Part shown: positions 12,634 through 34,411 of the stretch, in pieces
How positions within the stretch are numbered: position 1 is the stretch's first letter
Layout of the letters: every line of letters starts with the position of its first letter
Source: Neobacillus sp. PS3-12
GTDB lineage: Bacteria; Bacillota; Bacilli; Bacillales; Cytobacillaceae
Assembly (NCBI RefSeq): GCF_030915385.1
Contig: NZ_CP133268.1
Location: 2,097,430 to 2,161,429 of the forward strand
Reading direction: 5' to 3'
DNA length: 64,000 nt
The notes under the pieces: generated by a model
The model's input: only the letters and a program-made list of their open reading frames with translations
Databases searched by the model: none
What the model was told of the DNA's origin: nothing
Made by a program: the position numbers and the translations under genes

Positions 12634-12750
12634 TTAATCAATATCCTGCATTTCACTTAACAATTCAGAAATTTGATAGTGAATTGCGATATAATCGACA
12701 TACTCGTATGGGTTTTCTGTTTCAACTTCAACATCTAGAATGGCTTCCAT
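12634..12750 (-). CDS. 38-aa acidic small protein (MEAILDVEVETENPYEYVDYIAIHYQISELLSEMQDID), coupled downstream of DoxX paralog 1
   Basis: AAGAGG RBS in the 33-nt gap after the DoxX stop; a near-identical ORF follows DoxX paralog 3. Confidence 0.5.
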   Translation of the reverse strand: MEAILDVEVETENPYEYVDYIAIHYQISELLSEMQDID

Positions 12751-12783
12751 AGCATTCTACCTCTTTTATAATGAATTTTTGCA

Positions 12784-13305
12784 TTACGCACTATGTTTAA
12801 CGGAATTGATAGGATCATTTCCTTTAGCGCCAAATTTATGAACAAATGGGATCACCCAGCGGTCTAAACCGATGCGGCCTGCATTGAAACCAGCAGCAAG
12901 AATGATTACACCAAGTAAAATATCTAATGGGTTGCTAGAAACTACTCCAGCAAACACATAAGAGAAGTTCATGACTAGTCCAAAAAATGCAGCAGCTGTT
13001 GTTAAGCATCCAAGGATTAAACCTACACCAACTAAAAACTCACCATAAGGAACAAGGACGTTAAAAAGGTGTGCATTTGGGATAGCAAAGTGTTTTAAGA
13101 AACTAACATATGTTGGATATTCAACTGCTTTTGTTGGACTTAGAACTGGATGCGCAGCAACTCCTGTTAAAAATCCAGTTACATCAAATTTACCGCCTGA
13201 TATTTTTTCAAAGCCCGCCAACATGAATTCATATCCAACATAAAGTCGAATGACGGTAAGAATGTAAGATGCAATTTTGTTTTCTCTTAAAAATTTGTTA
13301 AACAT
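12784..13305 (-). CDS. DoxX family membrane protein, paralog 1
   Basis: 'IRLYVGYEFMLAGFEKI' DoxX motif; 4 TM segments; AGGAG RBS before ATG 13305. Confidence 0.8.
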   Translation of the reverse strand: MFNKFLRENKIASYILTVIRLYVGYEFMLAGFEKISGGKFDVTGFLTGVAAHPVLSPTKAVEYPTYVSFLKHFAIPNAHLFNVLVPYGEFLVGVGLILGCLTTAAAFFGLVMNFSYVFAGVVSSNPLDILLGVIILAAGFNAGRIGLDRWVIPFVHKFGAKGNDPINSVKHSA

Positions 13306-13412
13306 ATAAAAGACTCCTTTCAAAAGTCAGTAAATATTATTAATGATTACACCGTTATTATAGAACTTTCGGTTGGCATTTTGTTCCGTTCCTAGGACTA
13401 TTCACATAGTAT

Positions 13413-13455
13413 TCAAAAAGAATTGAACAAATATTGACAATGATTCTCGATTAGA
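13413..13455. promoter_or_regulatory. conserved about 43-bp upstream element of the DoxX paralogs (TTCAAAAAGAATTGAACAAATATTGACAATGATTCTCGATTAG), copy 1
   Basis: same element at the same spacing (about 95-150 bp upstream of the start) at all three DoxX genes. Confidence 0.5.
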
Positions 13456-13649
13456 TAGATTAGATAGATTAGATAGGTCGACAGACGCTGGGAATTACTA
13501 GGGAAATTGACTCTTTTCATTATGATTAGTTTTGCTAAGCTTAGAGCCATGGAAGAAAATATAATTATGAAAAGTAAATGGAAGATCGTAGGATATAGTT
13601 TTTTGGGATTTATTATGTGTCATTTCTCAATGCTTTTTAAGTTAATAAA

Positions 13650-13694
13650 CATACAAAAGGTACATCACTCTCTATGTGATGTACCTTTTGTATG
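13650..13694 (-). terminator. perfect 19-bp-arm palindrome (catacaaaaggtacatcac tctctat gtgatgtaccttttgtatg); likely terminator of the small-protein pair
   Basis: inverted repeat read directly in the sequence. Confidence 0.5.
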
Positions 13695-13784
13695 CCATAT
13701 ATCCGTGAATTTTGGTATTATATCCTCACGTTTCCTCGATATCCGCAAGTTTCGGTATTATATCCGTATCTCGCCTAAAGCATT

Positions 13785-14033
13785 TCATAGAAAAAAATTC
13801 TTCGGATACATTAATTGATCCCAATGGCCAAGTTGATTGGACGATGGGTCGTTACCATCAGCTGCTAAAATATCGATTTTTTCAAGTAACATTCCCGTTA
13901 CTATTCTCTTTTGAGTTAGCAATCCTACAAATTTTTCAATATCTTTAGTGGTACCTAATGCAGTGACAGTTTCCAATGCCTCTGCTAAAGCTTGTTCCAA
14001 GCTTGTAAAGGCGTCACGTAATGAATCTGCCAT
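13785..14033 (-). CDS. small acidic alpha-helical protein, paralog A
   Basis: AGGTGAT RBS; similar to the adjacent paralog B. Confidence 0.5.
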   Translation of the reverse strand: MADSLRDAFTSLEQALAEALETVTALGTTKDIEKFVGLLTQKRIVTGMLLEKIDILAADGNDPSSNQLGHWDQLMYPKNFFL

Positions 14034-14077
14034 ATTCCTATCACCTTCTAATGATATGGATTCCAAGTAAGACTAGA

Positions 14078-14335
14078 CTATTTGGGTTGGGGATTGTTGG
14101 CCAATTCCGCTGCTTGAATAATGTCTTGAAGGATAATATCAATTGCGAGTTCTTTTCTAATGGATAATGCAACTAATTTAATTAAATTGTCCGTGAAGGT
14201 TTCCAATTGTTCGGCCTTGAAATTTCCTTTACTAAGGATTCTAGTTTGAACAGTTATTGCATCTGCTAATGCATTTTCTATGTGGGCAACGGAGGAAAGA
14301 ACTTCAAGAATTGTTTCTCGAGAAGATGGAGACAT
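14078..14335 (-). CDS. small acidic alpha-helical protein, paralog B
   Basis: GGTGAT RBS; 85 aa. Confidence 0.5.
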   Translation of the reverse strand: MSPSSRETILEVLSSVAHIENALADAITVQTRILSKGNFKAEQLETFTDNLIKLVALSIRKELAIDIILQDIIQAAELANNPQPK

Positions 14336-14644
14336 TCAATATCACCTTTATTTTAGACTTGTATTCTAATGTATGTACGCTCTTTACAAGTGGTGTATAT
14401 CCCCTTTTATACTCGAGGAACGTTTAAAAAGTTGTCGCAGCAACATCGACAAACTTCTTCCTATATATGTGTAAAAAAGATTGTATTCTAAAGGATAAAT
14501 AAAAATTCAATCAATCGATTGATTAAAATTGAAATAGTCGAATGGGGTCATAAGAATACCTTGTGAAACGGCGCAAAAGAACTTTTCCTTAAGCACGGGC
14601 AAAATAAAATACAAGTAGTTATTAGAGAATGGATGACGACCATG

Positions 14645-15001
14645 TTACGACTGCGTAATCGTTCCTTGATGGAAAAACATTTGCCATCTTCCGTCAATAA
14701 ATTTCCAAATGGAACTTCGTAAGGTATTCTGCATGCTTGTTTCGTCTTTTATGTGATATGTCGCCAATACCGCCTCTTCTGATAAAGGATATATTTCAAA
14801 ATCAGAAAGGCTCATTTTCCTTACACTAAGTCCTCCGCCAACACAATCTTTCTTATACCAAACTCTCCCTGAACTACCGAATTCAAAGAAGTCGTCTGCA
14901 AGTAACTTGTCTAACTCAGCCGGCGTTGTTCTAGTATTAGGCTCCAACAATTGCTGCTCTAATTCAAGTAAATGCTTTTTTAACACAGACAAATTTTCCA
15001 T
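14645..15001 (-). CDS. DUF4440/SnoaL-like (NTF2-fold) protein
   Basis: sequence pattern; RBS before ATG 15001. Confidence 0.55.
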   Translation of the reverse strand: MENLSVLKKHLLELEQQLLEPNTRTTPAELDKLLADDFFEFGSSGRVWYKKDCVGGGLSVRKMSLSDFEIYPLSEEAVLATYHIKDETSMQNTLRSSIWKFIDGRWQMFFHQGTITQS

Positions 15002-15118
15002 TTTAATCATCCTTTTTATGTTAATTATTGCATTAATAATGGAAGGCTGGAAGATGTACCGTTGACACCAGACCGAAAAAACTAACGATGTGTTAAATAT
15101 AGAGCTGAGAGAGTTACA

Positions 15119-15292
15119 CGCCGCTATGATGCTGCTTCTCTAACTTTTTTCATGAGATCGGGCATCATACAGATGCTATGGTGCCGTTTCTCACGCCTTT
15201 TTCATAAGATCCGACATCATACGGTCGCTATGGTGCCACTTCTCCCCCCTTTTTAGGAGATCCAGCATCATACGAAGTCTCCCCATATATAT
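15119..15292. repeat. tandem about 52-bp repeats, family R1 (atgagatccgacatcatacagccactatggtgccacttctcc), about 3 copies
   Basis: direct repetition; same family at 24588-24812 and 35836-35882. Confidence 0.7.
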
Positions 15293-15332
15293 AAAAAAAG
15301 AAGCGTGATGTACACACGCTTCGGCAAAAAAC

Positions 15333-16667
15333 TTACTTCACAACGTTGAACGTTGTGCTTGCATTGCTTGAATTGTAGTTTGCTAATGTAGTAGTTGCGG
15401 ACACAGTAAATGTTCCACGCAAATTTTTGGCGATGAAGTAACTATAAGTATAATTACCATTTACATCAGTTTTACCGGTAACCGATGTAACGCTGCCTCT
15501 TGGATTTTTCACGGTCAATGCTACCGTTGCCCCGCTTAATGGGTTACCGTTAGAATCTTTAACAGTCGTGGTTAATTTGGCAGTATTGCCGCTATTATAT
15601 TGGCTGCTGCCAGCTGTCACAGTGGTCACGGTTTGGGCAGTAGTTTTCGTTGTTGCTGATAGATTCACCACACTGCTTTGTCCCTGATCATTTACTGCGG
15701 TCAGAGTGTAAGAATAAGTAGTATTCTCTGAGAGTCCTGTATCTGTAAAGGTTGTTGCTGTGCCTGTATATACGATATTTCCATTACGCTGCAGCTGATA
15801 AGAAGTCGCATTAGCGGATGCGCTCCAGCTTAATTGGATCGAATTAGCCGTTGAATTAGCAGTAAAGTTACTTGGTGCAGCTGGCACAGTAGGTGCAGGA
15901 GCAGTCAGGTAACCCCTTAATGCATCGATGGATGTTGGACCATAATCTAAATCTACCGCTCCCGTTACTCCTGGGACTGACCCTTGGTCACTGTACTGCC
16001 AGGCTGTCCATTGGGTCCAGCCGCCAACTGCTGGTGGCTGCGTATTGCCATAGCGTGTCCATGCGGCGATCCAAACGGGAATATCTGAAAGCTGACCACC
16101 AAAATCGTTGTACTGCTCGACAAACCAATCACCTGTATAGATCATTACCTGACGATTCGTCAGTGACTTTACCGTATCGACAAAAACTCTTCCCCAGCTG
16201 GCTATTTCATCGGAAGTTAACGTACCAGTTGAAGCGGGTTCCTCTAAATCAAGAACAGGCATAATATCCCCAAAATCGCCCATTCCTGCATTCTGCATGA
16301 CATTGACAAAATTCTGTGCTTCGGCTATTGCTTGGTCAGAGCTATAGGGTGCAGTCGGATTTGCATAGTGGTATGCACCAATAGGAAGTCCCGCTGCCCT
16401 TGCTCCCTGAACATTCGTAGCAAACATAGGGTCGGTAATGGTTGTCCCTTGGGAAGCCTTTGCATAGGCGAAGGCTATACCGGAGTTTTTAACCTGATTC
16501 CAGTCAATGGTTCCTTGCCAATGCGATACATCGATTCCATTTATATTGGCGCTTGTCGCTGGCTGCATTAATCCTGTTGCGCCAGCTACCGAATGACTCG
16601 TTAAGAAAATGCTAAACAGAAGAACTACTGAAAAAAACGGACGAATCAACTTTGCTGCATGTTTCAA
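15333..16667 (-). CDS. secreted GH25 muramidase (lysozyme) with FN3 and Ig-like (Big) C-terminal domains
   Basis: 'GIDVSHWQGTIDWNQV...' GH25 core; signal peptide after the TTG 16667 start preceded by a GGGAGAGAGG RBS. Confidence 0.85.
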   Translation of the reverse strand: MKHAAKLIRPFFSVVLLFSIFLTSHSVAGATGLMQPATSANINGIDVSHWQGTIDWNQVKNSGIAFAYAKASQGTTITDPMFATNVQGARAAGLPIGAYHYANPTAPYSSDQAIAEAQNFVNVMQNAGMGDFGDIMPVLDLEEPASTGTLTSDEIASWGRVFVDTVKSLTNRQVMIYTGDWFVEQYNDFGGQLSDIPVWIAAWTRYGNTQPPAVGGWTQWTAWQYSDQGSVPGVTGAVDLDYGPTSIDALRGYLTAPAPTVPAAPSNFTANSTANSIQLSWSASANATSYQLQRNGNIVYTGTATTFTDTGLSENTTYSYTLTAVNDQGQSSVVNLSATTKTTAQTVTTVTAGSSQYNSGNTAKLTTTVKDSNGNPLSGATVALTVKNPRGSVTSVTGKTDVNGNYTYSYFIAKNLRGTFTVSATTTLANYNSSNASTTFNVVK

Positions 16668-16926
16668 AAAAATCCTCTCTCCCTTTTTACGAAACTGAAA
16701 TACTAGCAATCCTTCTGTAATATACTAGTTATATTTCTATCATAATAAGGAATAACTTTGTTGTATACATGGAATTACTGGTAAAAATACACTATGAATC
16801 TTGCTTATATCGGAGCCTACGAAGTATTCAAGACTTGAGGTTCCCAATTTTAAATATCCTCTCTTTACTAATTTATAAGCCTCTACAAGATCAATCCTCC
16901 AACATACCATATTAGAAATCGAACGT

Positions 16927-17448
16927 TTGGAGGTGATTGCAATTTCTGATGTACATGAACATAAAATGGACCGAAATTTAAAAGAAACAATCATTGTTCC
17001 AGATCACGAAAAACGTGCGGAATCAGCAGAGTTTCGCCGATCTAAACATCGGTTAAAAGAGGATGGCCATTATAAATGCTGGGTGTGCGGAGGAACAGAG
17101 AATCTTCACGTCCACCATTTTGGCATTGAATGGTCATTAGCAACTATAGCAGATTGGGATAAAGTGAAATCATTTTGTGAGGAATGGGATCCATATGGGT
17201 ATGGTCGTTTGCTTCGCAATGTTCCGATGACATCACCGGATGATGTCCGAAATATGCTTGTGCTTTGTCAAGAACACCATACAGGGGTCGATCATGAAAA
17301 CAGCGGAAGCGGAACCGGGATTCACCAAATTACCTTTCCAGTATGGCTGATTCAAAAACTCGCAAAAACCGGGATTGATGCTGTTCCACAATCCGGCGAA
17401 ACACTTGAGCAGGCAGAACAAACAGTTAAAGAGCATGAAGCAAATTAA
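16927..17448 (+). CDS. HNH nuclease-motif protein (stand-alone)
   Basis: 'CWVCGGTENLHVHH' and 'LCQEHH' Zn/HNH motifs; start codon uncertain. Confidence 0.5.
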   Translation: MEVIAISDVHEHKMDRNLKETIIVPDHEKRAESAEFRRSKHRLKEDGHYKCWVCGGTENLHVHHFGIEWSLATIADWDKVKSFCEEWDPYGYGRLLRNVPMTSPDDVRNMLVLCQEHHTGVDHENSGSGTGIHQITFPVWLIQKLAKTGIDAVPQSGETLEQAEQTVKEHEAN

Positions 17449-17607
17449 TATAGAATTTTCACTATTGATAGATTAAAAATTAGAAAGCCAGTTAAACTAA
17501 TAAATTGATAATTTCTATAGAAAAAGGCCTGAATCCCTATATGGATTCAGGCCTTAAGCATTCCCCTGCCAGGCTAATATTGCCTGCAGGATTGTTGATT
17601 AATTTCC

Positions 17608-18123
17608 TTATGCACTGTGTTTAATAGATTTGACTTCTTCTTTTGCACCAAATTTATGAATGAATGGAATCACCCAGCGGTCTAGACCAATACGGCCTGC
17701 ATTGAAGCCAGCAGCAAGAATAATCACACCAAGTAAGATGTCTAATGGGTTACTAGAAACAACACCAGCCATTACATAACTGAAGTTCATTACTAAGCCA
17801 AAGAATGCTGCTGCAGTTGTTAAGCAGCCAAGGATTAAGCCAAGACCTACTAGGAATTCACCATAAGGAACAAGAACGTTGAACAGGTGTGCGTTTGGCA
17901 AGGCAAAGTGTTGTAAGAAAGAAACATATCCAGGGTATTCTACAGCTTTTGCAGGGCTTAGTACTGGATTATGAATGGCGCCTGCTAAGAACCCGCTGGC
18001 ATCAAACTTGCCGCCTGAAATTTTTTCAAAACCAGCCATCATGAATTCATATCCAAGATAAAGACGAATGACTGTAAGAATGTAAGAAGCAATTTTATTT
18101 TCTCTTAAAAATTTATTAAACAT
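17608..18123 (-). CDS. DoxX family membrane protein, paralog 2 (no downstream small ORF)
   Basis: about 85 percent identical to paralogs 1 and 3; terminator hairpin downstream. Confidence 0.8.
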   Translation of the reverse strand: MFNKFLRENKIASYILTVIRLYLGYEFMMAGFEKISGGKFDASGFLAGAIHNPVLSPAKAVEYPGYVSFLQHFALPNAHLFNVLVPYGEFLVGLGLILGCLTTAAAFFGLVMNFSYVMAGVVSSNPLDILLGVIILAAGFNAGRIGLDRWVIPFIHKFGAKEEVKSIKHSA

Positions 18124-18229
18124 ATATAAGACCCCTTTTCTTAAAAACATCATTAATAACTTGTTTACACTGTTATTATAGTTCGTTTTTCTTGAATTGG
18201 GAGTCGTTTGTTCATTATTTCACATATCA

Positions 18230-18272
18230 TTCAAAAAGAGTTGAAAAAATGTTGACAACGATTATCGATTAG
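18230..18272. promoter_or_regulatory. conserved DoxX upstream element, copy 2
   Basis: ttcaaaaagagttgaaaaaatgttgacaacgattatcgattag. Confidence 0.5.
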
Positions 18273-18353
18273 CCAGTTTCCAAAAGATCACACCAATCTA
18301 AAGGCTTTTGAAATGGATATGTTCCCTTCTGCAAGGTCCGTTTCGGATTTCGG

Positions 18354-18476
18354 GCACATAGAAAGGTTCTACGTTTCCTTCTGCAATGCTCTATTGAACT
18401 TTTGGTCACATAGAGCAGTTCTATGTGACTTCCTGCCTGATCCTATTCGGTTTTAGGTCACATAGAACAGTTAGGC
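18354..18476. repeat. tandem palindrome-containing repeats, family R2 (ggtcacatagaacagttctatgtgacttcctgc), about 3 copies
   Basis: direct repetition; same family at 34590-34712 and 62085-62125. Confidence 0.65.
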
Positions 18477-19055: not shown

Positions 19056-19229
19056 TGAATCACCGCACACATATCTGTTTGATTTTTAAAAATTACTTTT
19101 CATCCATATTAATCATTTTATTTTTACTTAACTCATTCATTCCTTTTTCAAAAAATAAAAGGACAAAGTAGTAAACTCTGTCCTCTTCAAACAAGCTTAA
19201 ATAGTAATGCAACAGGCTCGAACGACTAC

Positions 19230-20632
19230 TTACTGTGCCTTTTTCCCCTCTGCTGCTGGTATAACTGCATCCCTTTTATTTAAACCTTTGATATAGTAAA
19301 AAGCAATTAAAAAAACGATGAATAGTGGCCCAATATACAAGGCAATCCTTGTATCCGGATCAAATGCCATAACAACAATGACCAGGGCTAAAAATGCAAG
19401 AGATAAGTAAGAAGAAAATGGAAATAAAGGTACTTTGAATTTTAGTGTATTCCTTTCCTCTGGCATTAAACTCTTACGATAACGAATTTGAGATAGAAGA
19501 ATGATTGCCCAAGTCCAAATGGCTCCAAACGTTGAAATACTTGTGATCCAGGTAAATACTTTTGCCGGGACAATATAATTTAAAAGAACGCCAATCAGCA
19601 AAACGGCGGCAGAAACGATAACGGCTAAACCCGGCACGCCGCTTTTTGTTACTTTTCCAAATTTTGGGGTGCATTTCCATTTTGTGCAAGATTAAATAAC
19701 ATCCTTGCCGTGCTAAAGATCCCACTATTGCAGGAGGATAGAGCAGCAGTTAGAACAACAAAATTGATGATACCCGCAGCCCCAGGTATTCCAATTTGCT
19801 CAAAAGTAAGAACAAATGGACTTCCCTTTGAACCAAGCTCATTCCATGGATAAATGGACATGATAACGGTTAGTGCTCCTATGTAAAAAATAAGAATACG
19901 CCAAAACACATTATCAATGGCTTTTGCCAGATTTTTCTCTGGATTTTTAGTCTCACCAGCTGTTACTCCAATCACTTCAATCCCAAGGTAAGCAAACATA
20001 ACCATTTGCAGGGACATTAAAATCCCCTTTATTCCATGTGGGAAGAATCCGCCATGCTGCCATAAATGATGGATCCCTGTGGCAATACCTCCATTACCAA
20101 GCCCAAAGAAAATGACTCCAGCCCCAACCACGATCATACAAACAATCGTAACAATTTTGATAAGGGCAAACCAAAACTCCAATTCACCATAAGCCTTTAC
20201 AGCAAGAATGTTAACTAAGGCCATAATGACAAGTGCAGCAAGTGACCAAATCCAGCGTGGAACCGATGGAAACCAGTATTCCATATAAATACCAACAGCA
20301 GTAATTTCCGCCATACAGGTAACAACCCATAAAAACCAGTAATTCCAACCGGTTATATAACCGGCAAGCGGTCCTAAATAATCATGCGCATATTGACTAA
20401 ATGAACCAGCAACAGGTTTTTGAATCGCCATCTCCCCAAGGGCCCGCATAATAAAAAACATGATAAGACCTGCTACGGCATAGCCGACCAAAATACCTGG
20501 TCCAGCGAGCTTTATGGCTGATGCTGACCCAAGAAACAAACCGACCCCAATAGCAGCTCCCAAAGACATCAAAGTAATATGTCTTTCCTCTAAACCGCGA
20601 TGAAGCTCTTTTTCTAGGGTGTTTTTACTCAT
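19230..20632 (-). pseudogene. amino acid permease (APC/AAT family), frameshift at G-run 19666-19669 (likely 1-nt deletion)
   Basis: ORFs 19649-20632 and 19230-19637 join as ...NLAQNGNAPPKFGKVTKSGVPGLAVIVSAAV if one base is added. Confidence 0.8.
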
Positions 20633-20923
20633 AATGAATTCCTCCCTGCTTGACCCACTTCTGATTTTTCATCCCATCTGAAAAAATAGTTTAAAACATT
20701 CAATGCTATTAAACCATCTTTTTCCCTTTAAATTATTTGTAAAATAGTTTTAAAACATAATAGCTAAGATTAACCTCTTCTTGCAATGATAGTACTTGAT
20801 AGATTGTCATAAATCTAACTTTATATATTGTAACATTTTTTTGATTTTTCTTTCCCTTAATTTTTGGTAGTGATCTCAAAACTGGTCTAATTACATGGAC
20901 AGAAATCTCCCATTAGAGGACGA

Positions 20924-22258: not shown

Positions 22259-22345
22259 GGTATGCTGTTTTTTATTTCCCCTATGAATATATTATCCTTA
22301 TTACTTTAAATAACAAAAAACCGGCAATGATCTGTCGGTTCTTTG

Positions 22346-24587: not shown

Positions 24588-24812
24588 TGCAACTTTTTCT
24601 TCCATGCCCGCTCTGGCTTCATACAGTCGCTACGGTGCCACTTCTCCTACTTTTTTTATGAGATCCGACATCATACAGCCACTATGGTGCCGCTTCTTCT
24701 GCTTTTCTTATAAGATCTGGCATCATACAGCCACTATGGTGCCACTTCTCCTACTTTTTTTATGAGATCCGGCATCATAGGCCGCAGCCGCCTCTCCTAC
24801 TTTTCAATGTTA
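24588..24812. repeat. tandem about 52-bp repeats, family R1, about 4 copies
   Basis: direct repetition. Confidence 0.7.
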
Positions 24813-24891
24813 TTGATTAATCGATTTGACAAAATCCTGATCTGCCGTTAATATCACTATCAATTCGAACTTATTTATGGGAGAGATAAAG

Positions 24892-25332: not shown

Positions 25333-25392
25333 CGCAAAAAAACATGGTCATAAACAACCATGTTTTTTCCAGCGCTGCGCAAATCGCTAGAT

Positions 25393-26979
25393 CTACGCTA
25401 CAAATTTATTAATTTCTTCCGCCTCATCCATGTATTCTGTTTTAATCCCGCTTTTCACTCCCCAATAATAGAAGCCAAGTGCCAGACAAGCGATGACCGC
25501 CATATCCCAGCCAAATGGAATGATATTTTTTCCGCCGAACTTCTCACTTCCAATATAAGAAATCAAAATCATACATCCTAAGTAAAGAAGCATCCAAACA
25601 CCTGAAGTAAATTGTTTTTTGAATCCAATCCATTTATTTTTCGCTTGATAATAAAAGTAAATCGGAAGTCCAATGGCCATGATGAACACGACTTCTCCGG
25701 TTAACGGCCAGCGCGCCCAGTATAAAGTCAAGGATGCAAAAACAAATCCCAATGGTGCAATAACGGAAGCACCTTTTAAGCGAAACGGCCGATTAAATTG
25801 AGCAGCAGTACGTCTTAATGTGGTTAACGCAACAGGTCCCATGATGTACGAAATAAGAGTTGCAACTGAAATGATTTCAGCCAGAACGCCCCATCCACGG
25901 AATAAAAATAAAAAGAGATAACATACGCCTAAGTTTAAAAACATCGCAGGACGAGGTACACCGTATAGTGGATGCAAAGTACCAAAGATTTTCGGCAAGT
26001 ACCCATTTTTTTGCATCCCATAAATCATCCGCGATGTTGTAGCGGTATAAGTAGACCCTGTACCAGAAGGTGATATAAATGCATCAGCATATAATACAAT
26101 GGATAACCAGTTAAGCCCAAGAGCCAAGGCCAAATCGGCAAAAGGGGAATTAAAATTCAGATGATTCCAGCCGTTCACAATCATCGACGGCTCAACAGCA
26201 CCGATAAACACAACTTGTAAAATAATATAGACAAAACCTGCGATTAAAATAGAGCCGATAACAGCAATCGGAATCGATTTATTCGGTGACTTCGCTTCCC
26301 CTGCCATGTTAACAGGACTTTGAAATCCGTTAAAGGCAAACACGATACCAGAAGTGGCGACTGCTGTTAACACACTTGCCCCGCCGTATGGCGCCATTCC
26401 TTGAGCACTTGTAAAGTTCCCGCTATGGAATCCAGCAAAAAACAACGCTCCCACCACGACTCCTGGAACAATTAATTTCAAAACAGTAATAAATGAATTC
26501 GCCTTCGCAAAAAGATTGACCGTCCAATAGTTGACGAAGAAATAGACTAATAGTAGTACAGCAGCGATGAACACTCCTTTGATCGTTAAGATATTGTTAT
26601 GAACGAGAGAATGAGTCCATACTGCCCATTTCCAAGGCCACGTACTCATATATTGTACCGAGGCAATGGCCTCCACCGTAATCGTCGACGCAATTGAGAT
26701 CCAGTTCGCCCACGCCGCTAAAAATCCAATAAAAGAGCCATGTGAATATTGAGGATACTTAACCATCCCTCCAGCTTCCGGAAACATAGCCCCAAGCTCT
26801 GCGTAAGATAAAGCAATGAATAAAATAACAACCATACCGATTATCCAAGAAAAAATAGCTGCTGGCCCAGCAATTTGAGCAGCCTTCCACGCTCCAAACA
26901 ACCAGCCTGATCCGATAATCGAACCAATACCAGTCATCGTTAAAGCAAATGTCCCCATTTTTCTTTGCAAATTACCCAT
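25393..26979 (-). CDS. APC superfamily amino acid/polyamine permease
   Basis: 12-TM pattern; 'GSIIGSGWLFG' motif; GGGAGAGGTG RBS. Confidence 0.8.
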   Translation of the reverse strand: MGNLQRKMGTFALTMTGIGSIIGSGWLFGAWKAAQIAGPAAIFSWIIGMVVILFIALSYAELGAMFPEAGGMVKYPQYSHGSFIGFLAAWANWISIASTITVEAIASVQYMSTWPWKWAVWTHSLVHNNILTIKGVFIAAVLLLVYFFVNYWTVNLFAKANSFITVLKLIVPGVVVGALFFAGFHSGNFTSAQGMAPYGGASVLTAVATSGIVFAFNGFQSPVNMAGEAKSPNKSIPIAVIGSILIAGFVYIILQVVFIGAVEPSMIVNGWNHLNFNSPFADLALALGLNWLSIVLYADAFISPSGTGSTYTATTSRMIYGMQKNGYLPKIFGTLHPLYGVPRPAMFLNLGVCYLFLFLFRGWGVLAEIISVATLISYIMGPVALTTLRRTAAQFNRPFRLKGASVIAPLGFVFASLTLYWARWPLTGEVVFIMAIGLPIYFYYQAKNKWIGFKKQFTSGVWMLLYLGCMILISYIGSEKFGGKNIIPFGWDMAVIACLALGFYYWGVKSGIKTEYMDEAEEINKFVA

Positions 26980-27464
26980 CCCTGCCTGCACCTCTCCCTA
27001 GAAAAATAAAAAACACTCGATCTATATATAAATCAAGTGTTTGCCCAGGCGTACGACGAATAGTCTATATGCTCCCTCATGGTAATCCATGTGCGCCAGT
27101 TACATATAGAAGTATAGTTTTTTTATTAGTATAAAGGATTTTTACACTATTCACAATACATATATTCGTTATAATAAAAACTTTATATTTCGGATTTTGG
27201 CGCAAACTTCCTAATAAAAATTCATAAATTAGGTAACTTAAGTTCAAAAAACAAACATTCCCATACATTTCTACGTATTGTAAAAACAGAATAAGTCCCA
27301 TTTAAAATTATATTGACCAACCTTTAGGATTTATAATTAAATACGAAAAATTATGTCAGAAAAATAAGAATATTTTATATTGTTATTCAATGCTAGTTTG
27401 TTACATAATTTAGGTTGTACAAGAGAATTTGTACATAACTATTCCAAAAGAAAGAAGGGGTTAA

Positions 27465-29390
27465 ATGAAAAAACTTTGGAAAAAATTTTCTGCCGTTTCA
27501 ACCTTCAGTTCAATGATGCTTTTGACAGCTGTACCTTCTCTCACAAATGCAGCAACACCAACAAATGTAGCTGTCCAGCAAGGAATTAATCCTCAAGTTT
27601 TACAAAACGCCAGTGTATTTGGAAATGTTCCTGGTGATACCCCGGTTACAGTCGACATCGTGATGAAAATCAACAACAAAAATGATCTTGCAGAATTTAT
27701 CAAAAATACAACTACACCTGGAAACAGAAATTACCGTCACTATCTTTCTGTTGATCAATTCAAGAAAAACTTTGGAGCCGATCCGGAATCGATTAACAGA
27801 GCCACCAGTTACCTAAATGCATTCGGCATCAAAACAAGTGTCTATCCGAACAATTTAATCATCACAGCCAATGGTACAGCCGATCAGTTTAACAAGGCCT
27901 TTTCTGTTAAATTAAAAAAAGAAAAGTATAAAGAAAAGGAATTTCACGGCACAGAAGACAATCCAAAAGTACCCGCCACGTTCGGAAAAGATATTCTTTG
28001 TATCTTAGGATTAAGCAACTATTCCAATTACACTTCCCATGCGGTTAAACAGGTGGTTCCGTTGGAGGAAAACGGGAGCACCCCAGTAGGCCCCCTAAGT
28101 CTTGATCCTAAAGATTTAATCAAGCAATACAATGTACAACCTTTATACGATAAAGGCGCCACGGGTTCAGGTCAGACAATTGGAGTCGTTAGCCTGGCTG
28201 ATTTTAACCCCGAAGATGCCTATCAATTCTGGGCTAATGCAGGAATACCAGCAAAAGAAAACCGAATCACGAAAACTAATGTAGACGGCGGGTCAGGCTG
28301 GGATGGCTATGATGAGACGACCTTGGATGTTCAACAATCAGGATCGTTAGCACCACAGGCAAATATTAATGTGTATGTCGGGCCAAACAGTGACACTGGT
28401 TTTGCTGATGCTTTCGCCCAGGCCATTAATGATAATAAAGCACAACAAATTTCAGTAAGCTGGGGAGAAAGCGAGCCGACCATAAATTACCTTGTTGGCT
28501 TGCAACAGGAAACACCTCAATACGCAGAGGTGTTCAATCAACTGTTTATGCAGGCAGCTGCTCAAGGCATCTCCATGTTTGCCGCATCGGGAGACGAAGG
28601 GGCGTATGATGCCGCAAGAGAATGGGGGATTGGCTCCGGAGTTCCGAATGCTGATTCACTATCAGTCGATAGTCCGGCAGACAGCCCCTATATTACGGCT
28701 GCAGGTGGTACAACCTTACCGTTCCACTTCCATTCAACTACTTATAATGTCGATGTAAGCAATGACCAGGAACGTGCTTGGGGCTGGGATTATTTATATA
28801 ATTATTTCGATGCGAGAGGATTAAATACGCCTCAAGGCTGGGGTGACAGATACCTCGTTGGGGGTGGCGGCGGTTTCAGCCAGCTGTTCAGCACACCTCT
28901 CTACCAAAAAGGGGTTAAAGGAGTCAATACCTTCACAGCAGTAAAACAATGGACTCCAAATGCAGACCAATCTTCCTTAACAAGAGATGCCGCTGCAACC
29001 ATTGTGAAAGGAAAAGGAACAGGCCGGAACGTACCGGATCTTTCCATGAATGCCGATCCATATACTGGATATAAAGTATGGTTCAGCGACCCAGGTGCTC
29101 CTGGAACAAATTCAGGATATGCTGTCTACGGTGGAACCTCGTTCGTGTCTCCACAATTATGCGGCCTGTCTGCCCTAATCAACAGCGCTGACCATACGCA
29201 AGTTGGATTCTGGAATACACAAATCTACCGCTTTGCCCAGCAAAAGACTTCACCGTTACATCCATTAAACACGACAGGTGCTACTAACGATAACGGTTAC
29301 TATACAGGAACTCCTGGTACCGTTTATAACCAGGCTACAGGACTTGGTGTTCCTGATATCGCAGCACTGGCAGATAAGTTCTCACGATAA
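27465..29390 (+). CDS. secreted sedolisin (S53) family serine peptidase with pro-kumamolisin activation domain
   Basis: signal peptide; propeptide region; C-terminal 'GGTSFVSPQ' catalytic Ser motif. Confidence 0.8.
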   Translation: MKKLWKKFSAVSTFSSMMLLTAVPSLTNAATPTNVAVQQGINPQVLQNASVFGNVPGDTPVTVDIVMKINNKNDLAEFIKNTTTPGNRNYRHYLSVDQFKKNFGADPESINRATSYLNAFGIKTSVYPNNLIITANGTADQFNKAFSVKLKKEKYKEKEFHGTEDNPKVPATFGKDILCILGLSNYSNYTSHAVKQVVPLEENGSTPVGPLSLDPKDLIKQYNVQPLYDKGATGSGQTIGVVSLADFNPEDAYQFWANAGIPAKENRITKTNVDGGSGWDGYDETTLDVQQSGSLAPQANINVYVGPNSDTGFADAFAQAINDNKAQQISVSWGESEPTINYLVGLQQETPQYAEVFNQLFMQAAAQGISMFAASGDEGAYDAAREWGIGSGVPNADSLSVDSPADSPYITAAGGTTLPFHFHSTTYNVDVSNDQERAWGWDYLYNYFDARGLNTPQGWGDRYLVGGGGGFSQLFSTPLYQKGVKGVNTFTAVKQWTPNADQSSLTRDAAATIVKGKGTGRNVPDLSMNADPYTGYKVWFSDPGAPGTNSGYAVYGGTSFVSPQLCGLSALINSADHTQVGFWNTQIYRFAQQKTSPLHPLNTTGATNDNGYYTGTPGTVYNQATGLGVPDIAALADKFSR

Positions 29391-29698
29391 TTTTTAACCA
29401 AAGCCCGTCCCCATTTTTTTGCAGGATGGGTTTTGGCTTTTTTTTTGAAAAAAATGATGATGTCGGTTTAATGGGAGTTTTTAGTGCCTTCCCTGATATT
29501 GAATCCTCTTAGATGAAATATATGGTGCTGCTTATCATGCCTTTTTCCTGAAAGGTTTTCGTTGTTGCTGATCAGGTTCTGGTGCATTTATTATGGGGGG
29601 AAGAAATTGAAGGTCTGTAAAAATTTAACGGAATATTCACATTTATCTTTCTTGTATTTTTATAAAATAGGCTTAGATAGGAAGAAAGGAAGTGGCTT

Positions 29699-30607
29699 AT
29701 GTTACTGAAAAGCAGAACTGAATCTGATGAATTACTGAAAATGCGATCATTAAACAACAGGATGGAGTTATCACTAGAAGACAAGTCCCATTATTTCAAC
29801 CTCGAAAAAGGGTATGAAGGTGAGGTGAAATTTGACAGGATGGCAGAAAGTCATCAAGAAGAAAGATATCTCATTAATGACTTGCTGCTAAGAGTAGGTA
29901 ATTCTTATTTTCAAATTGATACCACAATGATTTCACAGGAAATCATTCGACTACTGGATATTAAAAATTTCGAAGGTGATTTTTGCCTGGAGAATGACAG
30001 ATTTTACTCCGTTAAAACCGGCCGTGAATATAAAAATCCTATCAGACAATTACAGAATAGTGCCTCCCAATTCCGCCAACTGCTCCAAATCCTCAAGCTA
30101 CATTACCTCGTTGAAGCCTCTGTTATTTTTATAAACCCAGAATTCGCCTTATACAATGCCTCTAGGGACTTGCCAATTATTCTTCCCAATCAAGTTGATC
30201 GGTTTTTAAAAGGCATCAATCAAACACCTTCCAAGTTGAATGATGGGCAAAAAAAACTGGCCCACCGATTAATTTCATTGCATCAAACTAAAAATCCATT
30301 TTCGTTAGTTCCAAAATATAATTATGAGCAGCTGCAAAAGAATCTCTTTTGTAAATTTTGTTATTCCTTTTTAGTCACTTTTCAAAATCATACTTTAGTT
30401 TGCGGAAAGTGTGGAGGTCATGAAACGGTTGAAGAAGGGATTTTGCGGAATGTGAGGGAGTTTCAGCTGCTGTTCCCTGAAAGGAAGGTTACGACTTCGG
30501 GCATCTACGAGTGGTGCAACATTGGTCTATCAAAAAAGACTTTTCGTAGGGTTTTAAACAAGAACTTTGCGGCTTTTGGAAAAACGAGCGACTGTTTTTT
30601 TAAATAA
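29699..30607 (+). CDS. NERD (nuclease-related domain) protein with C-terminal Cys4 zinc ribbon
   Basis: 'EKGYEGEVKFDRM...QIDTTMIS' NERD pattern; CKFC...CGKCGG. Confidence 0.7.
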   Translation: MLLKSRTESDELLKMRSLNNRMELSLEDKSHYFNLEKGYEGEVKFDRMAESHQEERYLINDLLLRVGNSYFQIDTTMISQEIIRLLDIKNFEGDFCLENDRFYSVKTGREYKNPIRQLQNSASQFRQLLQILKLHYLVEASVIFINPEFALYNASRDLPIILPNQVDRFLKGINQTPSKLNDGQKKLAHRLISLHQTKNPFSLVPKYNYEQLQKNLFCKFCYSFLVTFQNHTLVCGKCGGHETVEEGILRNVREFQLLFPERKVTTSGIYEWCNIGLSKKTFRRVLNKNFAAFGKTSDCFFK

Positions 30608-30640
30608 TTCCCGGGTCTGGTGTTGGTGTATGGTGTGATA

Positions 30641-31180
30641 TTCAGACAATGTTCCGAAGTTATCTTGAACTTGAACTAAAACTTCGGACATGGCCACGCC
30701 TTTTTGCGTTTGCTTTGTCCGAAGTTAGCCCGTCTTCGGACACGTCCACCCTTTTTTCGCCTTGCTTTGTCCGAAGCTAGCCCGACTTCGGACACGTCCA
30801 CCCTTTTTTTACCTTACTTTGTCCGAAGTTATCTTGAACTTAAACTTCGGACATGGCCACGCCTTTTTGCCTTGGCTTTGTCCGAAGTTAGCCCGTCTTC
30901 GGACACGTCCACCCTTTTTTCGCCTTGCTTTGTCCGAAGCTAGCCCGACTTCGGACACGTCCACCCTTTTTTTACCTTACTTTGTCCGAAGTTATCTTGA
31001 ACTTAAACTTCGGACATGGCCACGCCTTTTTGCCTTTGCTTTGTCCGAAGTTAACCCGACTTCGGACACGATCACCCTTTTTTCGCCTTGCTTTGTCCGA
31101 AGTTTACCCGTCTTCGGACACGACCACCCTTTTTTTGCTTTGCCTTGTCCGAAGTTATCTTGTCACCGACCTTATTGAAC
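30641..31180. repeat. higher-order tandem array of hairpin units (about 10 units of 52-59 bp; about 163-bp A-B-C super-unit x3) between convergent genes
   Basis: each unit is gtccgaag-loop-cttcggac, then acgtccaccc and a T6-7 run. Confidence 0.85.
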
Positions 31181-31244
31181 CAATGACTCCGACTGTTTTT
31201 TTTAAAAAAGGGATCCATTTTCATAATAGATCCCAGCAAAAAAA

Positions 31245-32756
31245 TTATTCACCATCTTTACTAATTTCTTTAATACCCTGAGCAATCGCCCCAAGTTCAC
31301 CTTTTAAGTTATGTTTCCCTGAATAGTTTTCTATCAGTTCTTTCAAGTCCAATCCTGTTGTCTCTTTCAGAGATTCCTGCAGGCCGGCCATTAAACTGGT
31401 TATATTACCACTGACAGTTGAAATTCCGCTGCCATTTCCAGAGTCAATAACGGTTACCTTATCAATATTACCAATCGGTTCAGCAACGGCTTTTGCGTAT
31501 TCCGGTAACATTTTAATGATCATATCCATAATGGCAGCATTGCCAAATTCTTCGAATGCCCTTGCTTTTTCTCTCAATACATTTGCTTCCGCCATCCCCT
31601 GTTTTTCAATGGCTGATGCGGTCGCTTCCCCTTCAGCAGCAATAGCCTTTGCATTAGCAAGACCTTCTAATTCTACTTTCCTCGCCTCAGCTTCGGCCTT
31701 GTTAATTTCCTGGATTTTTAAAGCTTCCGATTGATTTTGAATGCGAATCTTTTCAGCTTCTGATTCTTTAACCTTTTTATAATATTCAGCATCGGCCAAT
31801 TTCACAACAGTGGCCGTGTACTCTTTTTCTTTTCTTTGAATCTCTTTTTCTTCCAACTCAATTTTCTTTTCACGTTCGACAATTTCTACTTGAATCTCTT
31901 GTTGCTTTAATTCTTGATTACGTTGCGTCGTTTGTAGTTCAAAGGCAATCGCAGCATTCGCTTTTGCTGTATCTTCGACGATTTTAAATTCGGCAAGTCT
32001 TAATTCATTATTTTTCTTCGCTTCTGCGATTTCAGCCGCTCTTTCATACTCAGCAGAAGTCGCCTCTTTTTTTGCCTGAGCAACTTGAATTCTCTGCTCC
32101 TTCTCGGCATTCGCACGAGCAACCTCTGCATCCCGTTTTACCTCTGCCGTACGCCTTTGCGCCAAACTGCTAATGTAGTCATGGTCATCCGTAACGTGGG
32201 TAATATTAAACGTAACAATTTCAATCCCGAGTTTCTGTAAATCGGTTTCACTGGTTCTTTTGACAGAGGAAGAAAAGCTATCCCGATTCTTATTCGCTTC
32301 CTCAACGGTTAATGTTGCGATGATCGCCTTTAAATGTCCCTCTAAAATCTGGCGGATTTGTTGTTCACGATGTTCCGTCTGCACGCCTAAAAAGTTTTCC
32401 GCCGCACTAATCAGATTTTTTGTATCGTTATAAAATTTCACCGTTGCCACAGCCGTAACGTTAATGGGGACATCCTCTCTAGTTACAATCCCTTTTGCTT
32501 CAACGGTTAAGTTTGAAGGCTGCAGGCTCACTGTCCCCATTTTATGAATAATTGGTAAAACTACAGCTCCTCCACCGACAACAACTTTAATTTTTTTCCC
32601 TTGTTCATCTGTTTCTACGTTTCTGTTGCCCAAAGCACTCCCTGTAATCACCATCGCCGTGTCTCTTCCTACAACCTTATACCGGCTAATGGCATAAAGG
32701 ATTACGCCCAATATGACGACTACTAATACGCCGCCTATACCAATTGTTGAAGCCAT
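31245..32756 (-). CDS. floT: flotillin-like SPFH protein FloT (YuaG)
   Basis: N-terminal TM, Band-7 domain, long EA-rich coiled coil; 503 aa. Confidence 0.85.
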   Translation of the reverse strand: MASTIGIGGVLVVVILGVILYAISRYKVVGRDTAMVITGSALGNRNVETDEQGKKIKVVVGGGAVVLPIIHKMGTVSLQPSNLTVEAKGIVTREDVPINVTAVATVKFYNDTKNLISAAENFLGVQTEHREQQIRQILEGHLKAIIATLTVEEANKNRDSFSSSVKRTSETDLQKLGIEIVTFNITHVTDDHDYISSLAQRRTAEVKRDAEVARANAEKEQRIQVAQAKKEATSAEYERAAEIAEAKKNNELRLAEFKIVEDTAKANAAIAFELQTTQRNQELKQQEIQVEIVEREKKIELEEKEIQRKEKEYTATVVKLADAEYYKKVKESEAEKIRIQNQSEALKIQEINKAEAEARKVELEGLANAKAIAAEGEATASAIEKQGMAEANVLREKARAFEEFGNAAIMDMIIKMLPEYAKAVAEPIGNIDKVTVIDSGNGSGISTVSGNITSLMAGLQESLKETTGLDLKELIENYSGKHNLKGELGAIAQGIKEISKDGE

Positions 32757-32774
32757 GAAATCTCCTCATTCCTA

Positions 32775-33317
32775 TTAGAATTTAAAAATATCTATTTCAG
32801 CAGTGTTTCTTTGAAAAACAACAAATCGGTTATCTTTTACTTCCCATACAATTACTTCTGCATCTAACGGAATGGCATTTCCATCCCTGCTGATGGCTGT
32901 TCGAAAAATAAATCCTAAGTCATGTTCAACTTTTACTTCACCTAATGAATCCGTTCCTTCCCCTATTCCCATTGTAATAATTCCTTTTCTGCCCACCATA
33001 TCTTCTAAATCAATAGCAGAAGAATTCTCCATATGTTTTAAAGGTCGTAAGAAGAAATAAGAAATAAGAAACGTAAAGACAAGAGCTCCTAGTGCAGAAA
33101 TCATTAATATTCCATTTGACGGAAACACGGAATGGATCATTTTTTGAAGAATCAACCCAACTCCGCCTAGAAAACTTGCAAACAATACGACTTCGCTCGG
33201 TCCAAAGGGCAATACATCTAGATGGCCCGTTATTGCATCCATGAGGTCGCCTAATAGTAAAACAACGATTAATAATATGACGCCTCCAATCAACAGATAC
33301 CAATAAATGTGTTCCAT
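32775..33317 (-). CDS. yuaF: NfeD-like membrane protein (YuaF), upstream partner of floT
   Basis: 3 TM segments plus C-terminal OB-like domain; synteny with floT. Confidence 0.7.
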   Translation of the reverse strand: MEHIYWYLLIGGVILLIVVLLLGDLMDAITGHLDVLPFGPSEVVLFASFLGGVGLILQKMIHSVFPSNGILMISALGALVFTFLISYFFLRPLKHMENSSAIDLEDMVGRKGIITMGIGEGTDSLGEVKVEHDLGFIFRTAISRDGNAIPLDAEVIVWEVKDNRFVVFQRNTAEIDIFKF

Positions 33318-33744
33318 TGTGGCTCCATCGACGTGCAAAGTCATCACCGCCTTTTCAGTTATATGAGCTTGCTTTACGGATCGTTCTTTGACTTTCCCTA
33401 AACTGAAAGCACTCTATAAACATATTTTACCAGAGCTAACAGTATTAAAGGCACCAAATATTTTAAAAAAACAGAAAGCACTCAAGTACCAGTTCACAAA
33501 AATTTCACTAAATCTCACCTGTCCTTTTGCCCCCTTTCTTCCTATATAGAAGGTGAAAGGGTGGTGTTTATGGGGGTTTTCATGGAGGAGTTGGAGCAAT
33601 TGGTTGAATAATGTTGCCTTACAAGCGCTTTTAATAACTATTTATGAGCTTAGTTAAGTCAAAAAGCAGAGTTTCTCGGGGGCACAAAACGTGGAAAACC
33701 CACAGGCTCTTGGGGGATTTCACCTGTGGGTTAATCTGAATTTT

Positions 33745-33855
33745 TTATTCCTGGATTGCACTTAACAATTCTGAAATCTGATAGGGAATGGCAATGTAAT
33801 TCACATACTCGAATGGGTTTTCTGTTTCAACTTCAACATCTAGAATGGCTTCCAT
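33745..33855 (-). CDS. 36-aa acidic small protein (MEAILDVEVETENPFEYVNYIAIPYQISELLSAIQE), coupled downstream of DoxX paralog 3
   Basis: paralog of ORF 12634-12750. Confidence 0.5.
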   Translation of the reverse strand: MEAILDVEVETENPFEYVNYIAIPYQISELLSAIQE

Positions 33856-33889
33856 AGCATTCTAACCTCTTTTATATTGAATTTTTGCA

Positions 33890-34411
33890 TTACGCACTGT
33901 GTTTAACAGAATGGGTAGTATCATTTCCTTTGGCAGCAAATTTACGAACGAATGGGATTACCCAACGGTCTAAACCGATACGTCCTGCATTGAAACCAGC
34001 AGCAAGGATGATCACACCAAGTAAAATATCTAATGGGTTACTAGAAACTACTCCAGCAAACACATAAGAGAAGTTCATGACTAGTCCAAAAAATGCCGCT
34101 ACTGTTGTTAAGCATCCAAGGATTAAACCTACACCAACTAAAAACTCACCATAAGGAACAAGGACGTTGAAAAGGTGTGCATTTGGTATGGCAAAGTGTT
34201 TTAAGAAACTAACATATGTTGGATATTCAACTGCTTTTGTTGGACTAAGAACTGGATGCGCAGCTACTCCTGTTAAAAATCCAGTTACATCAAACTTGCC
34301 GCCAGATATTTTTTCAAATCCCGCCAGCATGAATTCATAACCAACATAAAGTCGAATGACAGTTAGAATGTAAGCAGCAATTTTATTTTCTCTTAAAAAT
34401 TTGTTAAACAT
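33890..34411 (-). CDS. DoxX family membrane protein, paralog 3
   Basis: near-identical to paralog 1. Confidence 0.8.
   Translation of the reverse strand: MFNKFLRENKIAAYILTVIRLYVGYEFMLAGFEKISGGKFDVTGFLTGVAAHPVLSPTKAVEYPTYVSFLKHFAIPNAHLFNVLVPYGEFLVGVGLILGCLTTVAAFFGLVMNFSYVFAGVVSSNPLDILLGVIILAAGFNAGRIGLDRWVIPFVRKFAAKGNDTTHSVKHSA

Follow-up and report, generated by a model that had tools for sequence, protein, structure and literature searches.

In a 64,000-nucleotide stretch of the chromosome of Neobacillus sp. PS3-12 (contig NZ_CP133268.1, positions 2,097,430 to 2,161,429 of the forward strand; hereafter the window) there are three genes encoding membrane proteins of the DoxX family, two of which (copies 1 and 3) are followed by a tiny open reading frame (ORF) coding for an acidic peptide of 36-38 amino acids (aa), called here the micro-protein. 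From the comparison of these sequences with related loci we consider it likely that the micro-ORF is an autonomous small gene residing at the 3' ends of operons, with DoxX as its commonest host and without being an obligate DoxX subunit, and that the remaining DoxX gene of the window (copy 2) has lost it. We regard the micro-ORF as an independent rider of operon ends because the same unit of ribosome-binding site (RBS) plus ORF is found behind unrelated genes and because most DoxX genes are devoid of it.

Selection on the micro-ORF and its annotation

The micro-ORFs of copies 1 and 3 differ by 11 substitutions over 105 aligned nucleotides (nt), 6 of them synonymous, and as many synonymous changes were obtained in only 0.4% of 20,000 trials in which the same types of substitution were placed at random (P=0.004). 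The ratio of nonsynonymous to synonymous rates (dN/dS) is 0.16-0.20, with a dS of 0.37 (similar to the 0.28 of the adjacent DoxX genes), while the five other frames give ratios of 0.55-2.8 or contain no synonymous changes at all, so that purifying selection is seen in the own frame of the micro-ORF only. The plus-strand antisense ORFs at 12606-12752 and 33756-33857, open in both copies, were considered as a candidate gene and rejected, because the third positions of the sense frame are their second positions (omega of 2.8). Strain variants, three in number, have changed at synonymous third positions only; the metagenomic L055 and L056 (loci outside the window are numbered with an L throughout) are three such substitutions away from copy 1. 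For more distant cassettes, 12 pairwise comparisons gave a dN/dS of 0.19-0.62 for the micro-ORF versus 0.06-0.17 for DoxX; judging by these ratios the micro-ORF is under selection, yet it evolves faster than the gene that precedes it. Among 15 unique sequences, the differences per site and pair along a core of 17 codons were 0.19, 0.13 and 0.36 at the first, second and third codon positions.

The frame-specific purifying selection, together with the in-frame family with its RBS found elsewhere (see below), agrees with the preliminary description of the window, which had argued from the sequence that the ORF is real, and makes it very likely that we are dealing with a protein-coding gene. The same description had taken it to be unannotated, and this also appears correct. 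The exact sequences of the two small-ORF products are absent from the NCBI proteins though the flanking PS3-12 proteins are present there, so that the NCBI record seems to leave both ORFs without annotation. Their products occur only as metagenome gene calls of IMG and ENA under the name 'hypothetical protein', the IMG calls including a product identical to that of copy 1. Genome annotation systematically overlooks proteins shorter than 50 residues.

An orphan family of small acidic proteins

HMMER was run exhaustively on 1.84 billion representative proteins with the two window copies as query, and retrieved proteins of 36-40 aa that are about 50-60% identical, plus one of 62 aa. Two profile searches of a collection of 5.8 billion sequences, in which an alignment led by a 40-aa family member was also used, delimited the family as about 15 clusters with lengths of 33-40 aa together with the 62-aa member, which is a head-to-tail tandem duplication of the unit. 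Scanning metagenomes with back-translated patterns added one near-identical locus only. The family members outside the window are all metagenomic, none of them is named and none has a Pfam domain. They share the core [YF]EYV[DN]YIxIxYQISxLL within the consensus MEAILxVEVExENP[FY]EYVDYIAIxYQISELLSE, and vary at the extreme N and C termini. In the numbering of copy 1, residues Y17, V18, Y20, Y25, I27 and S28 do not vary among the 16 aligned sequences, and E8, E10 and E12 are invariant in an alignment of 14 sequences (nearly so once the tandem member is included with its two halves). The preliminary description had made the reality of the ORF depend on its being conserved in frame in relatives; such conservation is what we found, in about 15 clusters and with a Shine-Dalgarno sequence in every context.

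No known family could be connected to these proteins. The micro-proteins of copies 1 and 3 have no Pfam or NCBIfam match at E<=1, and a Pfam scan of the whole family produced a match for a single member, at chance level. Nothing better than E=0.05 was found in PHROGs, and the best match among the PDB sequences had an E value of 2.9. Searches by tblastn against plasmids and phages returned no micro-protein match and gave no sign of an origin in mobile elements or phages, and a literature search for a small protein associated with DoxX found nothing relevant. On the basis of these searches the micro-protein is a member of an undescribed, narrow orphan family that is restricted to one lineage.

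Genomic contexts with and without DoxX

Contexts could be recovered for most of the family clusters, from metagenome contigs of which many are short. Six to seven of them are linked to DoxX, namely those of the window cassettes and their strain variants (L054, L057-L059), L060, L065/L066, L068/L069 and L070. The pair L068/L069 shares the synteny of copy 1, nrfHA genes included, and has an alcohol dehydrogenase gene inserted downstream on the opposite strand; the cassette itself is intact in spite of the differing flanks in L058 and L068. The DoxX proteins of L065/L066 are 72-75% identical to those of the window and the small ORF is still linked to them. In L070 a repeat-like insertion of about 140 nt separates DoxX from the small ORF, and the RBS and the ORF are intact. 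This insert (L070, 4840-4975) has terminal inverted repeats (aaggctgtgttaaa...tttaacacagcc) and looks like a miniature repeat element; a related sequence (ctgttgatttc.gctccaggc) is located about 60-110 nt 3' of DoxX in another locus, L009.

Five further contexts have the small ORF and no DoxX gene was called in any of them. One arrangement is found with the same synteny in two organisms (L061/L062 and L072), where genes for a BKACE protein, an ApbA-like reductase, a 3-hydroxyacyl-CoA dehydrogenase and the A and B subunits of a CoA-transferase are followed by the small ORF and a GntP permease. In L067 the tandem member of 62 aa lies between a short-chain dehydrogenase and an adenosine deaminase, in L063 the small ORF comes after an Fe-S oxidoreductase with CCG domains and a Spo0E-like gene, and in L064 it follows a gene of 124 aa. 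The ribosome-binding region (T)TATAAAAGAGG accompanies the micro-ORF in every context, including the unrelated L063, L065 and L067. Neither a shared terminator nor a 3' fragment of DoxX was found near the copies without DoxX; the RBS and the ORF are all that they have in common with the cassettes.

The converse comparison was made with 53 other DoxX loci listed from other species, a sample and not a census, with DoxX identities of 47-68% among the Bacillota and of 31-33% in three distant phyla. None of the 53 matched the micro-protein, either by tblastn (best E=1.2) or with a hidden Markov model of the family run on six-frame translations (best E=2.2), and nearly all of the other Neobacillus DoxX loci examined have a terminator directly after DoxX, within about 10-40 nt. 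The preliminary description had proposed the micro-protein as a partner of DoxX, regulatory or involved in assembly, and had suggested a tblastn search downstream of other DoxX genes. A partnership specific to DoxX is not supported, given the five contexts without DoxX and the empty result at these loci. Across the family, co-occurrence with DoxX is not obligate. DoxX is the commonest host of the micro-ORF and the linkage is preferential; the micro-protein is probably not a dedicated DoxX partner.

Organization of the window cassettes

The coordinates of the cassette components are collected in Table 1. The preliminary description had placed the three DoxX genes correctly, all of them on the minus strand, and all score well above the gathering threshold of the Pfam family PF07681 (43-46 versus 23.6 bits). 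The start of copy 2 is backed by an aligned RBS, AAAGGGGTC, and by the 171-aa length of WML55031.1. The identity of 85-90% previously given for the three copies is too low for copies 1 and 3, which are 93% identical in nucleotides and 96% in amino acids. Copy 2 is about 83% identical to copies 1 or 3 in nucleotides and 86-88% in amino acids. The three proteins and the adjacent NrfA are exact NCBI proteins of Neobacillus sp. PS3-12, whose chromosome is of 5.61 Mb. This genome carries at least five DoxX paralogs, the two outside the window (WML53292.1 and WML53313.1) being at least 90% identical to copy 2.

Table 1. Positions of the DoxX genes, the micro-protein genes and their flanking signals in the window
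Feature	Position	Strand	Description
DoxX paralog, copy 1	12784..13305	-	173 aa; Pfam DoxX 43.2 bits; exact NCBI 'DoxX family protein' of Neobacillus sp. PS3-12
DoxX paralog, copy 2	17608..18123	-	171 aa; Pfam DoxX 45.7 bits; exact match to WML55031.1; no small ORF
DoxX paralog, copy 3	33890..34411	-	173 aa; Pfam DoxX 43.0 bits; exact NCBI protein of PS3-12
Micro-protein gene, copy 1	12634..12750	-	38 aa, MEAILDVEVETENPYEYVDYIAIHYQISELLSEMQDID; starts 33 nt past the DoxX stop
Micro-protein gene, copy 3	33745..33855	-	36 aa, MEAILDVEVETENPFEYVNYIAIPYQISELLSAIQE; starts 34 nt past the DoxX stop
Intercistronic leader, cassette 1	12751..12783	-	33 nt; RBS AAAGAGGT at 12759-12766
Intercistronic leader, cassette 3	33856..33889	-	34 nt; RBS AAAGAGGT at 33865-33872
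Intrinsic terminator, cassette 1	12589..12630	-	14-bp stem, loop with AAAUCCCCC, U run; -28.6 kcal/mol, z -6.6
Intrinsic terminator, cassette 3	~33695..33732	-	11-bp stem, loop with AAAUCCCCC, U run; -19.4 kcal/mol, z -4.2
Intrinsic terminator, copy 2	17521..17555	-	-24.3 kcal/mol; 52 nt past the DoxX stop
Conserved upstream region, copy 1	13354..13446	-	repeated TTGTNCAA-type boxes at 13390-13446; TATAAT box at 13357-13362
Conserved upstream region, copy 2	18172..18264	-	same boxes (18208-18264) and TATAAT
Conserved upstream region, copy 3	34459..34551	-	same boxes (34495-34551); TATAAT box at 34462-34467

Copies 1 and 3 are homologous from about 140 nt upstream of DoxX through the terminator, so that the duplicated unit comprises the promoter region, DoxX, the spacer, the small ORF and the terminator, as would be expected of the duplicated cassette that had been proposed. 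The succession of DoxX, tiny ORF and terminator that had been described for these two copies was recovered in both, with strong, long and GC-rich hairpins followed by U runs and measured gaps of 33-34 nt. The leaders are nearly identical (one mismatch and one indel), and the micro-proteins themselves are 83% identical. None of the shuffled controls folds as well as either terminator; the two stems differ in sequence with their pairing kept, and the loop is common to both. Copy 2, as previously noted, lacks the small ORF and has a terminator of its own; we found no similarity to the small-ORF region there, and no small ORF between the DoxX stop and the terminator.

The details of translation required more revision. 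The RBS, AAAGAGGT, located 8-9 nt ahead of the ATG in both cassettes, is of the GAGG type and not of the AGGAG type formerly assigned. A read-through or fusion of DoxX with the small ORF was also considered and is excluded by two in-frame stops in the gap of copy 1, where both are in the same frame, and by the frame mismatch of copy 3. The translational coupling ascribed to the two genes is too strong a claim, given the gap of 33-34 nt in place of an abutting or overlapping stop and start, the separate Shine-Dalgarno sequence and the in-frame gap stops of copy 1. What these features point to is probable co-transcription with independent initiation. Since the spacer contains no promoter-like or terminator-like site that we could find, the micro-ORF should be transcribed from the DoxX promoter.

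History of the cassettes

In a neighbor-joining tree of the DoxX proteins, copy 2 is nested in the clade of small-ORF-linked sequences, outside of which branches L065, also provided with the ORF. In addition, at 90% identity the DoxX proteins of L060 and L070, both with the small ORF, cluster together with copy 2. Because of this nested position, and because copy-2-type DoxX genes elsewhere carry the ORF, copy 2 most likely reached its present state by secondary loss rather than by primary absence.

The terminators that follow DoxX in other Neobacillus (L011, L012, L016, L020, L024 and L025) show 5-6 consecutive C in the loop, a candidate conserved RNA feature of the 3' end. The loop AAAUCCCCC after the small ORFs, with its compensating stem changes, together with these C-run loops, suggests that the micro-ORF acquired its position between DoxX and the ancestral terminator of DoxX.

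The product and its possible mode of action

Both micro-proteins have 8-11 acidic residues, no Lys or Arg, no Cys and 3-4 Tyr, for a net charge of -8 to -11. The grand average of hydropathy (GRAVY) is about 0 and there is no hydrophobic span, which indicates a soluble cytoplasmic peptide. AlphaFold2, run with the 14-sequence alignment, predicted a helix at residues 20-37 with a predicted local distance difference test (pLDDT) score of 85-91, and an unstructured N-terminal half (pLDDT 55-69). The sequence of this half, in which V and E alternate and the pattern Y-x-Y-x-x-Y follows, would also fit two short strands. The model of the 62-aa tandem member was of low confidence (pLDDT 66) and permits no conclusion about a pseudo-dimer.

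A working model may be sketched from these elements. The DoxX promoter region would drive a bicistronic operon with the micro-ORF as the distal gene, translated independently from its own Shine-Dalgarno sequence. The resulting peptide, soluble and cytoplasmic, would have an acidic N-terminal half, flexible or strand-like, and a C-terminal helix as predicted. Its Tyr-rich segment and helix might dock on a protein partner or on itself, as a small binding protein would do, and it would be co-expressed with whichever operon it rides on. Binding to another protein, or to itself, is the most likely way of action, and the natural tandem fusion of 62 aa is a hint of self-association.

Alternative explanations

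The close association with DoxX invites the interpretation that the micro-protein serves DoxX alone, be it as accessory subunit, as assembly factor or as regulator, and forms an obligate pair with it. Indeed, in the window and in L060, L065/L066, L068/L069 and L070 the small ORF lies directly 3' of DoxX within one terminator-bounded unit, the pair was duplicated as a unit, and the linkage persists down to about 72% DoxX identity and has survived the insertion of L070. We nevertheless think this rather unlikely, since members with conserved synteny are found behind CoA-transferase genes in two organisms, others behind a short-chain dehydrogenase, a Spo0E-like gene and the 124-aa gene, no DoxX being called there, and since neither the 53 listed loci nor copy 2 have the ORF; moreover, a peptide with this charge, a GRAVY of about 0 and no hydrophobic segment cannot be a membrane-embedded subunit. 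The hosts could also be seen as having redox chemistry in common (DoxX, the 3-hydroxyacyl-CoA dehydrogenase/CoA-transferase cluster, the short-chain dehydrogenase and the Fe-S oxidoreductase with CCG domains). A self-contained module of RBS and micro-ORF would then have been taken up on several occasions by redox-enzyme operons of a single Neobacillus-related lineage, each time after the stop codon and ahead of the terminator, and the soluble, Tyr/Glu-rich peptide free of Lys and Arg, of a new kind, would modulate such enzymes or be used by them, with DoxX as the main client. This looks improbable. Another interpretation would leave the ORF untranslated and ascribe its conservation to recent duplication or to a role of the DoxX 3' untranslated region as RNA, for instance as a small RNA derived from it and ending in the terminator with the C-rich loop. 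The leader and the opening 42 nt of the ORF hardly differ between copies, the codons TAT CAA ATT TCT are nearly invariant in nucleotides throughout the family and the terminator loop AAAUCCCCC is conserved, with C-run loops in the DoxX terminators of other Neobacillus. All the same, this is very improbable: the synonymous excess is confined to the sense frame, variability decreases from the third to the first to the second codon position, members that are about 50% identical keep the amino-acid motif by means of different codons, and the Shine-Dalgarno sequence is at the right distance in every context, while RNA structure around the start codon is no better than in shuffled controls (z -0.3 to -0.7) and no Rfam match was found at the cassettes.

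A regulatory leader peptide, with the following hairpin as attenuator of the next gene, would account for the arrangement in the window, where the short ORF and hairpin precede a gene on the same strand (a 100-aa lipoprotein gene in the case of copy 1, NfeD in that of copy 3), and for the similar one in L061, L065 and L067. We leave very little room for it, considering that the downstream gene is a different one in every context, has the reverse orientation in L058, L064 and L068/L069 and begins 80 to about 400 nt away, that the folds showed no alternative pairing of the antiterminator kind, and that the protein is conserved over its whole core, unlike leaders that consist of codon runs. By analogy with MauE and the DoxX-type protein HvfX, the Tyr- and Glu-rich peptide might instead be a precursor, either of a ribosomally synthesized and post-translationally modified peptide or of a peptide-derived cofactor, matured by DoxX. 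The window DoxX proteins do give weak, sub-threshold matches to MauE and to the HvfX family, and the invariant Glu and Tyr residues and the multiple peptide copies would be in keeping with modification. This can be given next to no credence, however: the HvfX scores are 20-22 bits against a cut-off of 80, the Pfam-annotated neighbors in the fetched contexts include no radical S-adenosylmethionine, MNIO/DUF692, YcaO or lanthipeptide-type enzyme, the peptide has neither Cys nor a signal or leader-core architecture, and copies of it exist without DoxX.

Our preference for an autonomous gene at operon 3' ends must itself be set against several points. DoxX is still the majority context, and the linkage is preserved even in L065, where DoxX identity has fallen to about 72%; this would fit a DoxX-related role as well. 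The context counts are small and partly non-independent because the members outside the window all come from metagenome contigs, often short, and the absence from other Neobacillus species refers to the sample of loci listed. The tree behind the loss in copy 2 was built from about 170 residues without support values and allows a weak inference. Finally, the idea of binding or self-association derives from one tandem-fusion member and a helix prediction, and the AlphaFold2 model of the fusion is of low confidence.

Upstream region and possible regulation

A block of about 60 nt ahead of the TATAAT box (TTGTCAATATTTGTTCAATTCTTTTTGAAT..ATGTGAA) is conserved in all three DoxX copies and in related cassettes (L059, L060, L068, L069 and L070). 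It includes the box ATGTGAA-N4-TGAACAA, and related boxes are found ahead of DoxX in other Neobacillus species, e.g., TTGTGAACTATTTCACAT in L011. The Rex operator is TTGTGAA-W4-TTCACAA (PMC2883068). The window boxes agree with it in 11 of 14 positions and also resemble Crp/Fnr boxes. We rejected the identification as a Rex operator because of this partial agreement and because no Rex-like box with at least 12 of 14 positions was found upstream of any small-ORF host operon; a redox or anaerobic control of the cassettes is kept as a weak lead, with a putative regulatory role for the box. A gene for a regulator of the Crp/Fnr family (8076-8639, minus strand) adjoins nrfH-nrfA (8920-10901, minus strand), the genes of a cytochrome c nitrite reductase; the group lies some 2 kb downstream of cassette 1. 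This is possibly an anaerobic-respiration neighborhood.

Comparison with known systems

The window genes are clear members of the DoxX family, with about 170 aa and scores above the Pfam cut-off. MhqP and CatD of Bacillus subtilis are examples of membrane proteins of this family. Several DoxX genes within about 20 kb are also found in N. niacini MER531, N. novalis and N. dielmonensis, and the sampled loci of other species have no second cistron, unlike copies 1 and 3 of the window. The DoxX genes themselves are ordinary and the unusual part is the appended second cistron.

The thiosulfate:quinone oxidoreductase (TQO) of Acidianus, DoxD-DoxA (NF041179), likewise combines a DoxX/DoxD-type membrane protein with a second, smaller gene. 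The likeness goes no further: the three DoxX copies score 20.3, 25.4 and 21.7 bits with the equivalog model of TQO DoxD, far from its cut-off of 300 bits, and the partner in the window is a soluble acidic peptide of 36-38 aa without Pfam or NCBIfam match, not a subunit of the DoxA type. DoxA is a much larger membrane protein. IMG labels the DoxX genes of the window 'thiosulfate dehydrogenase (quinone) large subunit', a name that over-annotates them.

CydX, AcrZ, KdpF and MgtS are small proteins that modulate membrane proteins and are single-pass hydrophobic peptides. The micro-protein is comparable to them in having fewer than 50 aa, in being encoded in or next to a membrane-protein operon and in being of a size often missed by annotation pipelines. 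It differs in the absence of a hydrophobic span and of basic residues, in its charge of -8 to -11 and in having several host operons. The systems of HvfX (NF050144) and MauE (PF07291) similarly have a DoxX-like membrane protein beside a short peptide gene. Here, the DoxX copies remain below the family cut-offs (19.7-22.4 bits for HvfX, where 80 are demanded), the peptide lacks Cys and a signal peptide, and no gene for a precursor-modifying enzyme was seen among the Pfam-annotated neighbors of the fetched loci or the scanned neighbors in the window.

Other features of the window

Near the DoxX cassettes there recurs a conserved pair of genes, both small and without a Pfam match (about 85 aa for one, 82-101 aa for the other), in the window at about 13785-14400 (minus strand) and in L054 (728-1278), L068 (3633-4160), L070 (5300-5859) and L073 (277-856). 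It is located upstream of DoxX in the window and in L068, and downstream of the small ORF in L070, L071 and L073, the last of which has two more small genes after the pair that look GerPA/GerPF-like by eye only. An amino-acid permease gene at 19230-20632 (minus strand) is split into ORFs of 327 and 135 aa, covering positions 1-321 and 330-463 of the Pfam AA_permease domain, by a frameshift or as a pseudogene; in the syntenic metagenome locus L068 the permease is intact, with 469 aa.

Intergenic tandem arrays of 52-53-nt units, with 3-9 copies, are found at 6584-6731, 15122-15273, 24615-24779, 30670-31162 and 39438-39666, and a single unit of related type at 35829-35883. Each unit has its own inverted repeat, and the sequences differ between loci while the period is constant. 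A further repeat, with a periodicity of 15, 30 and 45 nt, occurs in a coding region at 3782-3945; its GC(T/A)-rich unit, if read from the other strand, would encode a repeat rich in Ala, Lys and Glu. The only Rfam match in the window is a ZMP/ZTP riboswitch at 27036-27113 (minus strand; 57.7 bits, gathering score 39). The gene that directly follows it codes for an APC-type amino-acid permease of 532 aa (25393-26991). Riboswitches of the ZTP class normally control purine or folate genes, and an amino-acid permease is an unusual cargo for them.

Significance

Since many orphan families of small proteins are known, one more is an incremental and unsurprising result. Nevertheless, a family without relatives in any curated library, with clear selection, an invariant core and a simple arrangement, can be tested in cultivable Neobacillus. 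If the peptide acts on DoxX, it would provide a first handle on a very widespread and poorly understood family of membrane proteins. If it acts independently, it would illustrate how small genes can propagate, namely by settling in the space that separates a host gene from its terminator.

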